A stretch of 64,000 bases of DNA, taken from NCBI GenBank assembly GCA_033762255.1, contig JANRLT010000053.1, positions 4,803 through 68,802 of the forward strand, given 5' to 3'. The position numbers were made by a program, and so were the translations under genes. Of the stretch, positions 11,057 through 52,882 are shown one piece after another. The notes under the pieces are model-generated. The model had not been told where the DNA came from. It saw only the letters and a program-made list of their open reading frames with translations, and searched no databases. How positions within the stretch are numbered: the first letter of the stretch is position 1; the number at the start of each line of letters is the position of its first letter. This DNA is from Pirellulales bacterium. Lineage in GTDB: Bacteria > Planctomycetota > Planctomycetia > Pirellulales > JALHPA01.

Positions 11057-11386
11057 GCGGAATGTTTGCAAATTCTTCATGGGTTGGAAGTGAGTAACGG
11101 CGTTCACGCCTCGTCGGTCTTGCGATTTGTCAGATTCGATTGCGTCATTTTTGGGGTTACACTAATTTTGGCACAGGGCAGCGGCTCTTGTGCGCGGGAA
11201 TGTTTGCAAATTCTTCATGGGTCGGCAGCGAGTAACGGCGTTCCCACCTCTTCAGGTTTACGATTTTTTAGATTCGATTGCGTCATTTTTGGGGTTGTAC
11301 TAATTTTGGCACAGGGCGCGGCGATGTTTGCAAATATTTCTGCTCCATCCAGTGGGCTTCTTGTGCTATGCACACTGGAACAAGTT
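11057..11386. repeat. Tandem repeat of about 136 bp (2 full units plus a diverged third unit related to the 130-bp repeat)
   Basis: Units start at 11057 and about 11194 (GCGG(G)AATGTTTGCAAATTCTTCATGGGT...GATTCGATTGCGTCATTTTTGGGGTT..ACTAATTTTGGCACAGGGC). A third unit (11323-11386) aligns to the distal half of the 130-bp repeat. Confidence 0.8.
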
Positions 11387-27393: not shown

Positions 27394-27672
27394 GAATGAT
27401 TCCTGCGACCGGTTACTATCCAGACGCACTATTGTGAAAGAAGTTCGCCACTTCGTCAATTGGCAGGGAGGATTGCTGGGAATTACGAATTGAATGCAAA
27501 ATTCCGCAATCTCCAATCCTACTCCTGGCTTTCCCTCTTTCCGACGCTCCGCTGCGCGTCGAGACTAACCGGATTCCACCCGCCACATCCCGTCCACCGG
27601 CGGACTCAGGTCCGCCGCTCGCCCTCTCCCTAACCCCTGACCCCGAACCCCTGACCTCTAACCGTTGGCCAC

Positions 27673-27693
27673 GTCCCGTCCGGCGGACGGGAC
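27673..27693. repeat. PAL-1 copy 4
   Basis: GTCCCGTCCGGCGGACGGGAC followed by CTACTCC. A degenerate half-copy lies at about 27596-27615. Confidence 0.9.
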
Positions 27694-27780
27694 CTACTCC
27701 TTTTCCGCATCTCGCCACCTACGTGACACCTTTGTACAAAAAACAGCAAAAAAAATCTCCCCTAGGGCCTAAAATCGCCC

Positions 27781-28190: not shown

Positions 28191-28369
28191 ATTAAATGCA
28201 GAAGTCTGAATAATGAATGCCGAATTGCGGCGGGTTTTTCAATAAATTTCAGTGCCTGACGGGAAATATCCGGGATTTAGATTTAATTCTCCCCCGTTTT
28301 CTAAACGATGTCCCTCGATTAAGCTAAATGAACGATTCATTTACTTTATAGACCCACGGCACTTAAAAA

Positions 28370-29275: not shown

Positions 29276-29327
29276 CACTACTCGACCTAAACCTCCCGCG
29301 TCCCACCTCCCGTCTCCCGCCTTACCA

Positions 29328-29348
29328 GTCCCGTCCGGCGGACGGGAC
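29328..29348. repeat. PAL-1 copy 5
   Basis: TACCAGTCCCGTCCGGCGGACGGGACCTACTCC, 42 nt upstream of the kinase ATG. Confidence 0.9.
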
Positions 29349-29389
29349 CTACTCCCACCTCCCGCCTCCTTCTCCCACTCTCTCCCGTC

Positions 29390-43647: not shown

Positions 43648-44163
43648 ATGGTAAACACGATGCCTATGGCCAGTCCGGGGACGATAACCGCATTAACAGC
43701 CAAATTTCCCCTGGTGATTAAAAGCGAGTTTCGCGGCGAAACCCGGGTGGTTTTGCCCGTGGAGCAATTGCTAGAGATCATGGGTTTTTTGAAAGGGGAA
43801 TTGGGTTTTGACTATTTGGTCGACATTACTTGCGTGGATTATTTGAACTATCGCGACGCACGCGACCGCTTTGGCCTGGTGTATTTACTCAGTAATATTA
43901 GCGCCAACGAGCGATTAACGGCGCGGGTGTACCTGAACGAGCCAAATTTGACCGTCCCCAGCGTGGTGCCATTGTGGGAGGGGGCGAATTGGCTGGAACG
44001 AGAAGTTTATGACATGTTCGGGATTGTGTTTGACGGGCATCCGGACTTGCGGCGGATTCTTTGTCCCGAGGAGTTCACGGCCTACCCCCTGAGAAAAGAT
44101 TATCCCATGCAGGGTCGCGGAGAGCGGCACAACTTTATGCGCTTGGGACGGGATGAAACCTGA
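43648..44163 (+). CDS. nuoC: NADH-quinone oxidoreductase subunit C
   Basis: [24 protein letters not shown] and YPLRKDYP. Confidence 0.9.
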
Positions 44164-44200
44164 GGGGAATGCAGAAGTAAAAATGCAGAATGCAGAATTT
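44164..44200. repeat. Left inverted-repeat arm flanking the four-helix-bundle cassette (AATGCAGAA x3)
   Basis: GGGGAATGCAGAAGTAAAAATGCAGAATGCAGAATTT starts 1 nt after the nuoC stop. Confidence 0.8.
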
Positions 44201-44231
44201 TTGAAGCAGACTTATTTCCAGTTTTAGATTC

Positions 44232-44612
44232 ATGCGAGCAACAATCATGCAAAAATCGACTCAAAACCATGATTTGCAAGTCCGCACCAAGCACTTGGCT
44301 TTGCGGATTATGACGCTATATACCGCACTTCCTAAAACCACGATCGCTGATGTGTTAGGCAAGCAAGTTTTACGCAGCGGCACATCCGTGGGCGCGCAAT
44401 TTCGCGAGGCGTGCCGCGCTCGCAGTCGGGCGGAATTTGTAAGCAAGCTTAATAGCTCTCTGCAGGAATTGGATGAAACCGGATATTGGTTGGAATTGTT
44501 AGTGGAGGGCAAAATTGTCAAAGAAACGAAATTGTCCTTATTGATTCAAGAAGTGGAGGAATTGACCGCCATCTTTGTGAAATCGATAAAAACCGCGAAA
44601 TACACCAGTTAA
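44232..44612 (+). CDS. Four-helix-bundle protein (23S rRNA intervening-sequence protein / Avd-like family) inserted between nuoC and nuoD
   Basis: LQVRTKHLALRIMTLYTALPKTTIADVLGKQVLRSGTSVGAQFREACRARSRAEFVSKLNSSLQELDETGYWLELL matches the family pattern (Q..RsatSi.aN..EA..a.S..dF..Kl.i...E..Et.yWL.ll). The start may be ATG 44247. Confidence 0.75.
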   Translation: MRATIMQKSTQNHDLQVRTKHLALRIMTLYTALPKTTIADVLGKQVLRSGTSVGAQFREACRARSRAEFVSKLNSSLQELDETGYWLELLVEGKIVKETKLSLLIQEVEELTAIFVKSIKTAKYTS

Positions 44613-44635
44613 GTTACCTTTACTTGTATTTCTTC

Positions 44636-44674
44636 GCCATTCTGCATTCATCATTCATCATTCTGCATTTGCCC
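44636..44674. repeat. Right inverted-repeat arm (TTCTGCATT x2 ... GCCCC)
   Basis: GCCATTCTGCATTCATCATTCATCATTCTGCATTTGCCCC has the reverse complement GGGGCAAATGCAGAATGATGAATGATGAATGCAGAATGGC. It ends 2 nt before the nuoD ATG. Confidence 0.8.
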
Positions 44675-44675
44675 C

Positions 44676-45905
44676 ATGCCTTCCCTTGCCACGCCTCCCG
44701 CGACCCAAAACCTGGCCCATGACGAGCCGGTGGATTATTTGTGGACCTTGAATTTTGGGCCACAGCATCCGGCGACGCATACCACGTTGCGATTGGTCAT
44801 CAAGCTGGATGGCGAGCGCGTGGTGGACGCCATGCCGGATATCGGCTATTTGCATTCCGGGTTTGAAAAGATTGGCGAGCACCTGGACTACAATCAGTAT
44901 GTGACCATCACCGATCGGATGAATTACATTTCACCGGTGGCGAATGGAATCGCGTGGCATAGCGCGGTCGAAAAACTGCTGGGAATCGAGATCACCCCCC
45001 GCTGCCGCTACATTCGCACGATTCTGGCGGAATTGGCGCGGATCAGCGATCATTTGCTATGCAACGGCGCGGTGGGGTTGGACACGGGGGCGTTCACGTT
45101 TTTCTTGTACGCGTTTAACCAACGCGAAGTGATCTACGATATCCAGGAAACGCTCTCCGGCCAACGTTTTCATCCCAGTTACACCCGGGTGGGTGGTTTG
45201 ATGTACGATATGACCCCCCTGGTTGTGGAAAAAATTCGCAAGTTTTGCCGCGAGTTTCCCAAAACCCTGGAGGACATGGAAAAGCTGCTCAATCGCAACA
45301 AGATTTTTCATGATCGCACGCGCGGCGTGGGCGTGCTGACCAAGGAGCAGGCGATTAATCGCAGCGCCAGCGGACCAATCGCGCGGGCCAGCGGCGTGAC
45401 CCGGGACCTGCGCAAGGACGAACCGTATTTGGCGTATCCGGATTTTGATTTTAAAATATGCTGCGCGACGGCGGGGGACTGCTTTAGCCGCTACTTGGTT
45501 CGGATGGCCGAGATGCGGGAGAGCCTGCGGATTATCAAAGCCGCCATTGAAAATATTCCCCCCGGCCCCCACAGCGTGGCCCCGGGCGAACGCACGACTT
45601 TACCCGAGAAACGCATGGTGTACTCCACCATCGAGGGGACGATCTCGCATTTTGAGTTGGTCATGAGCAACCGCGGCTTTGAAGTTCCGCGGGAGGAAGT
45701 TTACGCGGCCAACGAGACGGCGAACGGCGAATTGGGCTTTTATATCTCAGGGGACGGTACCGATGTCGCCTACCGGGCGCGCACCCGACCCCCCAGCTAC
45801 ATCCACTTTGCCATGTTTCCCCATTTGATCCGGGGTCATACGTTGTCCGACATCGTGGCGGTGCTGGGCAGTTTGAACATCATCGCGGCGGAACTGGATC
45901 GGTAG
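44676..45905 (+). CDS. nuoD: NADH-quinone oxidoreductase subunit D
   Basis: LNFGPQHPATHTTLRL, IGYLHSGFEKIGE and a C-terminal IIAAELDR. Confidence 0.95.
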   Translation: MPSLATPPATQNLAHDEPVDYLWTLNFGPQHPATHTTLRLVIKLDGERVVDAMPDIGYLHSGFEKIGEHLDYNQYVTITDRMNYISPVANGIAWHSAVEKLLGIEITPRCRYIRTILAELARISDHLLCNGAVGLDTGAFTFFLYAFNQREVIYDIQETLSGQRFHPSYTRVGGLMYDMTPLVVEKIRKFCREFPKTLEDMEKLLNRNKIFHDRTRGVGVLTKEQAINRSASGPIARASGVTRDLRKDEPYLAYPDFDFKICCATAGDCFSRYLVRMAEMRESLRIIKAAIENIPPGPHSVAPGERTTLPEKRMVYSTIEGTISHFELVMSNRGFEVPREEVYAANETANGELGFYISGDGTDVAYRARTRPPSYIHFAMFPHLIRGHTLSDIVAVLGSLNIIAAELDR

Positions 45906-45911
45906 TATATC

Positions 45912-46094
45912 ATGGTCAAAATTGAAGGCAGTTCGCCGCTTGAAAAATTTGAAAAACGATTCTTCAAAAATGAATCGCATCATGTTGTGTTTAGTTTGTA
46001 CGCAAGAAGCATTCAATCAACGGACATATTAGAATTCTGTCAAGACTATGTGGAGTGTGTTGATTACTGGAGAGAAGGATTGTGTCAAGTTTAG
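45912..46094 (+). CDS. Small AT-rich ORF of unknown function (doubtful)
   Basis: 60-aa ORF beginning 7 nt after the nuoD stop. No motif recognised. It is listed only because it sits in the inserted nuoD-nuoE segment. Confidence 0.2.
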   Translation: MVKIEGSSPLEKFEKRFFKNESHHVVFSLYARSIQSTDILEFCQDYVECVDYWREGLCQV

Positions 46095-46146
46095 CCAAAA
46101 GTGAGTGCCAGTTCACAATAACAGATTGTTAGCCGAGTTCGCGCGT

Positions 46147-46668
46147 ATGAAGATTTGCACGCTTACATCGACACTACTGATTATGGGATTCCTCAGCTTG
46201 CTCGGTTGCTCGAAACTCAACGACGCGCCGCAGGAACAGCAGAAGGTGTCGGCATTGTCACAGGCAGACGTTGAGCGCCTCGACAAGCAGCGAGCCATCA
46301 TCACGCAATTTGTGGCGGACGAGGATTCGAGAGCCAAATATCAGAAGGTCGCAGGCAAGCTCGGCACTTTACAAGCGATTCTCAACCAGAAGGAGTTCCA
46401 GCCGTCACAAACCTACGAGCTTCAGTGTATGGGCGCAGTTCTCGGAGACGCATTTGTTCAGGAGATGGGGATGGAGTGGGTCATGGTCGAGGACGAGCAT
46501 GGCACTGACCCAGCAGTGCGATTGCCAGGCACGACCATTATCATTTTCCCGCTCACGATGATTTCCAAGCGAGTCGAGCGGGGCGAGACTTTTGACGTTT
46601 TCGACCTATTCAACGGAATTGCAGACAAGATTGATCAGCTCAAGAAGACAGCAGATAAAACAAAATGA
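46147..46668 (+). CDS. Putative lipoprotein of unknown function inserted between nuoD and nuoE
   Basis: MKICTLTSTLLIMGFLSLLGCSKL is a signal peptide with a lipobox (LLGC). About 150 aa of soluble domain follow (possibly DUF3806-like, from memory only). The track ORF starts at 46105. Confidence 0.55.
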   Translation: MKICTLTSTLLIMGFLSLLGCSKLNDAPQEQQKVSALSQADVERLDKQRAIITQFVADEDSRAKYQKVAGKLGTLQAILNQKEFQPSQTYELQCMGAVLGDAFVQEMGMEWVMVEDEHGTDPAVRLPGTTIIIFPLTMISKRVERGETFDVFDLFNGIADKIDQLKKTADKTK

Positions 46669-46910
46669 AGGAGTAGGCTAACAAGGGCGCTGCAGCGATC
46701 CGCCACCCCGCTGCGCAGGCGGGCGGTTAAGATAATTTGGCCGTGCGTGTTGCAGCCGACCGGGCGTTTCCAGCGGCGGTCACTGAGCTTGGGCGTTGAT
46801 TGTGAGTACCTACCTTATTGAGTGTGAAAACCTACATGAAAAAAATGAGATAAATTTTGCCGTCGCATTTTGCTTTCGATCTATTACTTGCTGAATTAGA
46901 GTTCCGATTT

Positions 46911-52835: not shown

Positions 52836-52841
52836 TCCTCC

Positions 52842-52876
52842 CCACTATCCACTATCCACTACCCACTATCCACCCC
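52842..52876. repeat. Heptamer microsatellite CCACTAT/CCACTAC x4 plus CCACCCC in the nuoH-nuoI spacer
   Basis: CCACTATCCACTATCCACTACCCACTATCCACCCC ends 6 nt before the nuoI ATG. Confidence 0.9.
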
Positions 52877-52882
52877 ACTCCC

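Follow-up and report, generated by a model that had tools for sequence, protein, structure and literature searches.

The 512 nt that separate nuoC and nuoD (44164-44675) in a 64,000-nucleotide stretch of a Pirellulales bacterium genome (contig JANRLT010000053.1; the whole stretch is referred to here as the window) contain a gene for a small four-helix-bundle (4HB) protein, flanked by two complementary arrays of heptanucleotide repeats that reach to one host gene's stop codon and the other's start codon. We think it probable that this segment is a horizontally acquired cassette of the intervening sequence (IVS) type, consisting of an array, a 4HB gene and a complementary array, that resides in an mRNA operon instead of in rRNA. 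The same build of a gene with inverted heptamers is present in ordinary operons in at least nine phyla when plasmid-borne relatives are included, and the window cassette is one instance of a very widespread type of element, not a curiosity of the nuo operon. The initial annotation of the window described an insert of 511 bp ending at 44674; the insert between nuoC and nuoD stands, but the gap from the end of nuoC (44163) to the start of nuoD (44676) is 512 nt and ends at 44675. Its three parts, a left arm with three copies of AATGCAGAA, a 126-aa open reading frame (ORF) and a right arm with two copies, are evident in the sequence.

The ORF encodes 126 aa if translation begins at 44232 (44232-44612) and 121 aa from an alternative start at 44247, which is the NCBI-annotated start of P0001, a protein from a Pirellulales metagenome-assembled genome (MAG) to which the window protein is 100% identical; this start also fits the homologues better than 44232. 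The placing of the protein in the 23S rRNA IVS-protein family, made at first from the letters of the DNA, is borne out by matches to PF05635 (23S_rRNA_IVP; E 1e-18, 67.9 bits versus a cut-off of 33.8) and TIGR02436 (E 4.4e-24, 84.8 bits versus a cut-off of 24), both above the curated cut-offs. The nearest solved structure is PDB 2RLD (E 2.5e-21), an entry with five chains, and pentamer formation has been reported for the PF05635 family (Lin 2006, as cited in PMC4990558). The window protein is basic (pI 9.5). The family motif GxxRxxxSxxxNxxE (PMC3936711) takes the form G38..R43..S47..Q51..E54, such that in GKQVLRSGTSVGAQFRE the R, S and E are conserved, N is replaced by Q and one extra residue follows the G, and the motif columns are invariant or nearly so across 20 homologues. 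Profile searches with the ORF gave no match to transposase or recombinase families, and there was no PADLOC hit. A transposase-encoding insertion sequence is ruled out, as there is no such domain in the sole ORF of the cassette.

Copies of AATGCAGAA are at 44168, 44182 and 44189 on the plus strand and at 44640 and 44661 on the minus strand. The window has six copies in total where 0.69 are expected, five of them in the two arms, and none of 100 shuffles reached six. Both arms are tandem heptamer arrays in register, a regularity that the initial annotation had missed. The left arm (44167-44201) reads GAATGCA, GAAGTAA, AAATGCA, GAATGCA, GAATTTT, and the right arm (44629-44670) reads AAATGCA, GAATGAT, GAATGAT, GAATGCA, GAATGGC, GAAGAAA in reverse complement (TTTCTTC, GCCATTC, TGCATTC, ATCATTC, ATCATTC, TGCATTT on the sense strand). 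The arms align over 38 nt with 76% complementarity, and the two base pairings noticed at the outset, GGGGAATGCAGAA with TTCTGCATT(TG)CCCC and GAATGCAGAAT with ATTCTGCATTC, are both present. In the minimum free energy fold of the 44150-44690 segment (-166.7 kcal/mol, z = -3.0) the arms pair with each other; the partition function gives the arm pairs probabilities of 0.78-0.98, and the duplex of the arms alone has an energy of -37.7 kcal/mol. The long stem that had been proposed to loop out the ORF is therefore predicted by these calculations, with the nuoC stop codon within its base and the nuoD start codon adjoining it. The arms are not arbitrary inverted repeats but oriented heptamer arrays, the type of which goes with the protein subfamily (see below). 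That they are chance AT-rich sequence of low complexity is ruled out by the shuffles and by the enrichment of such arrays beside 4HB ORFs.

A signal scan found no promoter-like or terminator-like site in the cassette, and neither a sigma-70-like promoter nor an obvious Shine-Dalgarno sequence is present in the leader of the 4HB gene (44202-44246). The nuoD start codon abuts the right arm and is likewise without a Shine-Dalgarno sequence. No Rfam family matches the cassette or its surroundings, and the matches in the whole window amount to one tRNA.

Comparison with related nuoC-nuoD junctions shows that the segment has been inserted. We collected 80 metagenomic loci with NuoC relatives (40-72% identity), 50 of which span the junction; the gap is between -29 and 137 nt in 46 of these, and the remaining four have unrelated inserts of 695-958 nt. 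The 4HB gene is present in none of the 50, and its being a regular nuo subunit is thereby ruled out. The insertion has not truncated nuoC, because the C-terminus of the window NuoC has the same length as in its relatives, and in a C-terminal alignment it ends at the same residue as 13 of them. The GC content of the cassette is 44%, compared with 52-57% for the nuoC and nuoD flanks and 56% for the window. We note that among the four loci with other inserts (L107, L111, L112 and L117), the L111 insert has an ORF resembling a Uma2-family endonuclease and the L117 insert an ORF of ~250 aa, and those of L107 and L112 are apparently non-coding. Four further gaps (in L082, L087, L096 and L113) contain heptamer arrays or hairpins that come without an ORF and are built of other units, one example being L087, in which four copies of CCAATGT face four copies of TTGGACn.

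The arrangement recurs with close homologues of the 4HB protein. There are more than 8000 relatives in the databases, and those that are 60-70% identical to the window protein are in Acidobacteriota, Chloroflexota, Planctomycetota, Verrucomicrobiota, Cyanobacteria and one betaproteobacterium (six phyla). We collected 80 genome loci around close homologues, 79 of which are covered by the test for arms (Smith-Waterman score ≥30), and found inverted arms between the two flanks of the gene in 68 of the 79, with a median arm of 32 nt (~4.6 heptamers) and a median arm-to-arm cassette length of 461 nt. Arrays with a period of 7 have a density of 5.0 per kb within 150 nt of the ORF versus 0.28 per kb elsewhere in the same loci, an 18-fold enrichment. 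Their polarity is consistent, with GAAnGMW on the sense strand in 31 of 34 upstream arrays (31:3) and its reverse complement there in 32 of 35 downstream arrays (32:3). The unit conforms to GAA[T/G/C]G[A/C][T/A] in every case examined (GAAGGAT, GAATGAT, GAACGAT, GAATGCA, GAAGGCA); it varies between loci and the two arms of one locus match, and the gene and its arms therefore form a single oriented unit. The GC content of the cassette is below that of its flanks in all 68 homologous loci.

The two host genes on either side of a cassette are functionally linked. The upstream neighbor is co-directional with the 4HB gene in 51 of the 54 confidently called cases (51:3) and the downstream neighbor in 44 of 50 (44:6), and the arms touch the upstream gene's stop codon and the downstream gene's start codon, as in the window. 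The cassette lies between carA and carB in 10-11 Chloroflexota loci and between nrdA and nrdB in 7 Acidobacteriota loci, and other contexts include argB and argD, a Cys/Met pyridoxal phosphate (PLP) enzyme gene and metA, ABC ATPase and permease genes, alaS and an ftsX-like gene, and DUF58 and batA. One informative example is a Pyrinomonadaceae (Acidobacteriota) MAG, L043, which also has a cassette between nuoC and nuoD, with perfect 31-nt arms. The NuoC and NuoD proteins of L043 and the window are 41% identical whereas the 4HB proteins are 64% identical, and the nuoC-nuoD junction has therefore been colonized independently in two phyla. An Rfam scan of 20 homologous loci found no rRNA in any of them. 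In five loci (L019, L007, L032, L067 and L162) each flank of the 4HB gene is a complete hairpin in itself, with an array followed by its complement, which leaves several ways of pairing: each flank, upstream or downstream, could fold on itself, or the two could pair over the ORF.

A tblastn search of plasmids returned 30 records, mostly cyanobacterial, and we examined 14 copies of the 4HB gene on complete plasmids, the products of which are 33-62% identical to the window protein. All 14 have flanking arrays with a 7-nt period (as a compound 35-nt unit in L161), the arrays are inverted in 12-13 of the 14, and both annotated neighbors are co-directional in 12 (the exceptions are L172 and L173). 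The contexts include csx2-4HB-cas1, hsdS-4HB-hsdR, helicase-4HB-DNA methylase, DUF1156-4HB-Swt1-HEPN, RND adaptor-4HB-RND permease and 4HB-xisH. The cassettes in defense operons (csx2-cas1, helicase-methylase, DUF1156-Swt1-HEPN, hsdS-hsdR) are those of L161, which is a Pseudanabaena plasmid, L167, L168 and L174. A phage collection contained two weak 4HB matches only, and phages are therefore no obvious vehicle.

Taking chromosomal and plasmid copies together, the class of repeat is for the most part tied to the protein subfamily and not to the host. Units of the GAAnGAT class accompany the protein clade of the window across six phyla, CAGTnAn units accompany a pair of proteins, encoded on a Bacteroidota and a cyanobacterial plasmid, that are 55% identical, and GATTnnn units accompany three proteins of cyanobacteria with mutual identities of 57-68%. 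The Nostoc plasmids alone have four different unit classes.

The ten orthologous loci in which the cassette lies between carA and carB were used for an analysis of selection. Median identities are 87% for the 4HB protein, 82% for CarA and 90% for CarB, and pairwise 4HB identity tracks that of the flanks (r = 0.86). The median ratio of non-synonymous to synonymous substitution rates (dN/dS) is 0.05, with dS typically ≥1, and the 4HB gene is under strong purifying selection. Co-divergence with the flanks and the low dN/dS therefore indicate long vertical inheritance of the cassette at these loci. The arm type, the arm position and, mostly, the complementarity are kept despite saturated synonymous sites; the left array contains the carA stop codon (GAATGA), the right array runs up to the carB ATG, and there is a good Shine-Dalgarno sequence before the 4HB start. 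The spread across phyla at 60-70% identity, the low GC content and the scattered host sites argue for horizontal acquisition at some point, and the term mobile would describe the origin of the cassette, not necessarily its present behavior.

The unit comprises a 5′ array of approximately five GAAnGMW heptamers, a conserved gene for a basic 4HB protein and a 3′ complementary array, and we propose that, having no promoter or terminator of its own, it would be transcribed within the nuo mRNA. The arms would pair in this mRNA to form an interrupted stem of ~25-30 bp with the 4HB message looped out, and the stem would bring the nuoC stop codon beside the nuoD start codon. By analogy with the rRNA IVSs of Coxiella, Leptospira and Salmonella, RNase III may cut the stem to give separate nuoABC, 4HB and nuoD-N RNAs; alternatively, an uncut stem may preserve the coupling of nuoC and nuoD across the 0.5-kb insert. 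More speculatively, a pentameric 4HB protein could recognize its own arrays, with approximately five repeats for five subunits, and this would explain the repeat period, the polarity and the subfamily-specific repeat type.

Several observations do not sit easily with an acquired IVS-type cassette and weigh against it. There is no second copy of the cassette within the 64-kb window, in which there are also solo heptamer arrays without a gene (see below), and there is no direct repeat indicative of target-site duplication at the window or L043 junctions, for which a recent insertion with a matched empty site is lacking. Inverted arms are not detectable in ~15% of the close homologues, and the plasmid copy L164 has flanking repeats that are direct and not inverted. 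A group of cyanobacterial proteins that are 69-75% identical is split between CGTAATT and GGAGGTC units, and the correspondence between protein and repeat is therefore not strict. In the Chloroflexota loci with a carA-carB cassette, inverted arrays of the GAATGCA type are also found within carB, in frame, where they flank a conserved CarB segment; these surround native CarB sequence, which rules out that the arms are simply the ends of inserted DNA, and none of the explanations considered here accounts for them well. Lastly, we counted transition mismatches in the aligned arms according to whether they leave G:U pairs in the sense or the antisense strand, and sense-strand G:U is not in excess (58 sense versus 79 antisense), so that it could be processes acting on DNA, such as template-switch correction of quasipalindromes, and not selection on RNA that keep the arms complementary. 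Whole-flank duplex energies are dominated by non-specific pairing of the 130-nt flanks; in their strong subset the sense strand is weakly ahead (31:12, p = 0.03), and we do not claim RNA-level selection from this since the cleaner mismatch count does not reproduce it. As for the arrays within carB, they are at 4798-4948 in L024 and at the equivalent place in L016, L039 and L047, with the CarB segment AKQMGFADSxIARLL and variable linker positions, and they are translated as part of CarB.

The absence of a strand-specific wobble signal in the arms is one of the points that favor a DNA-level element, in which the arrays would be terminal repeats or cruciform sites for a recombinase supplied in trans, for a replication or repair pathway, or for the 4HB protein acting on DNA. 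Such an element would resemble the systems of repetitive extragenic palindromes (REPs) with their REP-associated tyrosine transposases (RAYTs), or MITEs (miniature inverted-repeat transposable elements), and the stem in the RNA would be a by-product. Inverted heptamer hairpins without an ORF, some of the cassette's type and some of other types, are dispersed in the same genomes and in the nuoC-nuoD gaps of relatives, the spread across phyla together with the low GC content argues for mobility, and there are copies on conjugative and mobilizable plasmids. However, the 4HB ORF is unrelated to the transposase and recombinase families, target-site duplications are not seen in the window or L043, and orthologous copies are vertically stable. 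The 51:3 sense bias and the placement of the arms exactly at stop and start codons point instead to dependence on host transcription and translation, neither of which would be needed by an element acting purely on DNA. Such an element seems unlikely, although a DNA-level role for the arms is a live alternative, as is their upkeep by template-switch correction.

The patchy distribution of the cassette, its low GC content and its absence from the 50 related junctions look like acquisition, and they make it quite improbable that the 4HB protein is a domesticated regulator, a host-beneficial RNA-binding factor that would act on operon heptamer arrays in a TRAP-like manner and tune the stability or coupling of the flanking genes. 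In a variant of this explanation the downstream essential gene has been made dependent on the 4HB protein. In either form, the cassette is kept for its function and not as a parasite. The dN/dS of 0.05 and the co-divergence with the flanks over saturated synonymous distances are in keeping with such a role, as are the sites between subunit genes of essential enzymes, the arrays of the same type inside carB mRNA, the basic nature of the protein, and the approximate agreement of the five array units with the five chains of 2RLD and the pentamers of the family (as cited in PMC4990558). There is also a precedent of a kind in the short tandemly repeated repetitive (STRR) heptanucleotide hairpins of cyanobacteria, which are present in hupS-hupL and elsewhere and have been proposed to stabilize transcripts or to couple translation (PMC2670836). 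However, RNA binding by the 4HB protein is only putative, and in Coxiella the ORF of the 23S IVS is decaying and apparently untranslated while the IVS itself persists (PMC4990558).

A coincidence of slippage-born heptamer repeats in operon spacers with an unrelated small gene between them is strongly disfavored, and we regard it as very improbable. Solo arrays are indeed present in other spacers of the window (nuoH-nuoI, 52836-52882; 2816-2910), and heptameric simple sequence repeats are over-represented in several phyla (PMC4692102, PMC4679880), but coincidence does not account for the 18-fold enrichment of arrays beside the 4HB ORF, their fixed polarity, arms that match within a locus and differ between loci, a repeat class that across phyla mostly goes with the subfamily and is not the same from one Nostoc cassette to another, or the array pattern in 14 of 14 plasmid copies. 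It is scarcely credible that the gene is left over from a diversity-generating retroelement (DGR) or is the accessory gene (avd) of one, for although PF05635 proteins are homologous to Avd (PMC10053308), the neighbors here are nuoC and nuoD and there is no reverse transcriptase or template/variable repeat pair adjoining the gene, either here or in the typed contexts.

The acquired IVS-type cassette is thus the explanation we prefer, and a broader possibility can be raised tentatively, as one that may well not hold, namely that PF05635 proteins belong with tandem heptamer arrays in a single ancient and very widespread element system, each supplying one half of it. Gene-bearing cassettes would then be the autonomous forms, and the STRR sequences, the convergent GGGAATC array pairs of Xanthomonas (PMC4692102) and the nuoH-nuoI array of the window would be non-autonomous or decayed forms, possibly along with the short rRNA IVSs; each subfamily would recognize its own heptamer class, with a pentamer reading approximately five repeats. 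If true, this would provide a common explanation for the origin of the rRNA IVSs, the heptanucleotide repeats of bacteria and the function of the 4HB family, and the reported associations of PF05635 with CRISPR, DGRs and defense would in part be artefacts of insertion. The rRNA IVSs have been on record since about 1990 with no agreement on their origin, on how they move or on what their ORF does, the heptanucleotide repeats of cyanobacteria, Xanthomonas and Beggiatoaceae are equally unexplained, and the unit of a gene with inverted heptamers connects these two puzzles.

Published work describes PF05635 genes as 'associated' with cas loci (PMC3936711, PMC10910872) and, as Avd homologues, with DGRs (PMC10053308). 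The finding of cassettes inside cas, restriction-modification and defense operons therefore calls for caution in assigning function to PF05635 by guilt-by-association, and the published association with CRISPR and defense may reflect insertion rather than function. A hairpin-forming insert of 0.5 kb in nuoC-nuoD or carA-carB implies an RNA processing or coupling mechanism, and copies of the cassette exist in the cultured Nostoc punctiforme PCC 73102, Planktothrix agardhii NIES-204, Gloeocapsa PCC 7428 and Treponema saccharophilum. The N. punctiforme copy (L171) is beside xisH on plasmid pNPUN01, and that of Gloeocapsa is on pGLO7428.03. The interest is thus not in a single locus but in a widespread, regular and apparently undescribed class of element that links rRNA IVSs, heptamer repeats and an abundant protein family.

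The features of the nuoC-nuoD junction are listed in Table 1.

Table 1. Host genes and cassette components at the nuoC-nuoD junction, in window positions.
Feature	Position	Strand	Match or pairing
nuoC, upstream host gene	43648..44163	+	PF00329, E 5.6e-44
GGGG outer clamp, immediately 3′ of the nuoC stop codon	44164..44167	+	Pair probabilities 0.5-0.6
Left arm, five in-register GAAnGMW-type heptamers, sense strand purine-rich	44167..44201	+	
Spacer and 5′ leader of the 4HB gene	44202..44246	+	
Four-helix-bundle (4HB) gene, 121 aa	44247..44612	+	PF05635, TIGR02436
Right arm, six reverse-complement GAAnGMW-type heptamers, sense strand pyrimidine-rich	44629..44670	+	
CCCC outer clamp, immediately 5′ of the nuoD ATG	44672..44675	+	Partner of 44164-44167
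nuoD, downstream host gene	44676..45905	+	PF00346, E 1.1e-101

Three solo arrays are present elsewhere in the window. At 52836-52882, approximately five copies of CCACTAT fill the entire 47-nt gap between the nuoH stop codon and the nuoI ATG, with no inverted partner. The second is a composite array of ~95 nt (CTTTCCA, CTCTCCA/CTCTACC, CCACTAC) at 2816-2910, between two minus-strand genes; it reads GTGGAAA and GTAGTGG on the sense strand, and its unit type matches that of the 4HB arms on a Treponema saccharophilum plasmid (L165). The third, at approximately 28195-28230, is a degenerate GAAnnnn array belonging to the class found in the cassette arms (AATGCAG, AAGTCTG, AATAATG, AATGCCG, AATTGCG) that holds the sixth AATGCAGAA copy of the window and has no complementary arm nearby. 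A palindrome, gtcccgtccggcggacgggacctactcc, that is REP-like in appearance is present twice (~27660-27700 and ~29320-29360), in both cases after a C-rich array whose period is close to 7 (CCCTAAC/CCCTGAC; CCTCCCG). There is also a tandem repeat at 11059-11322 with a 138-nt unit (1.9 copies, 89% matches). Within the nuo operon, the gap between nuoD and nuoE (45906-46856) contains a 187-aa ORF (46105-46668) with AT-rich spacers on both sides, which may represent a second insertion; the product begins with a segment, judged by eye to be hydrophobic, which may serve as a lipoprotein signal.

Among known systems, the rRNA IVSs (Leptospira, Coxiella burnetii and the Xanthomonas-type 'S23p') share with the cassette a PF05635 ORF and an inverted-repeat stem of ~28-30 bp. 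The 23S IVS of C. burnetii is 428 nt long and has a PF05635 ORF, two or three GACAGAT heptamers and one GACAGAA upstream of the ORF, and termini that form a 28-bp stem cut by RNase III at the first repeat; its origin and function are stated as unknown (PMC4990558). The IVS-like topology suggested in the initial annotation agrees with this anatomy, including the heptamers 5′ of the ORF and the terminal stem. The sizes are similar (428 nt in Coxiella, 512 nt in the window and a median of 461 nt for the homologues), the tandem 5′ heptamers are GACAGAT in the Coxiella IVS and GAATGCA in the window cassette, and both kinds of element are in sense orientation within a highly expressed host transcript. 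In contrast, the cassette is in the spacer of a protein-coding operon whereas the IVSs are in helix 25 or 45 of 23S rRNA, the cassette arms abut stop and start codons, the ORF is strongly constrained in the cassette homologues but decaying in Coxiella, and RNase III excision has been demonstrated for the rRNA elements only. The cassette is thus outside the 23S rRNA, the location by which an IVS is defined, and is IVS-like by the other criteria that could be tested.

Like the cassette arms, the STRR-type repeats are made of tandem 7-nt units, are located in operon spacers and often directly adjoin a stop or start codon, and they too are often convergent inverted pairs that are capable of forming hairpins and have no known function. 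A further example is TAACTGA, arrays of which immediately precede start codons in Beggiatoaceae, Cyanobacteria and Bacteroidetes (PMC4679880). No enclosed gene has been described for such repeats, whereas the cassette arrays bracket a conserved gene with fixed polarity, and the 4HB family is not mentioned in the three papers on heptamer repeats (PMC2670836, PMC4692102, PMC4679880). A cassette of this sort in an mRNA operon had been thought to be uncharacterized, and our literature search, which had most subscription papers outside its reach, likewise found no 4HB genes bracketed by inverted heptamer arrays outside of rRNA.

The Avd protein of Bordetella phage BPP-1 (bAvd) has a homologous, basic four-helix-bundle fold and is pentameric and nucleic-acid-binding, although the cassette stands alone, without a reverse transcriptase or template/variable repeats. 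REPs and bacterial interspersed mosaic elements (BIMEs) with their RAYTs, and the MITEs, are also short inverted-repeat elements that colonize the intergenic spacers of operons, with two apparent tiers of gene-bearing copies and gene-less hairpins. They differ in that the cassette protein is no transposase and its arms are heptamer arrays and not unique terminal repeats, and target-site duplications are not seen at the window and L043 junctions. Finally, free-standing homing endonuclease genes are found between conserved genes, as with phage T4 mobE between nrdA and nrdB. Although the cassette has inverted repeat arms and no recognizable nuclease domain, in both cases a small, selfish-looking gene lies between co-transcribed essential genes, and the same junction has been hit in distant lineages.

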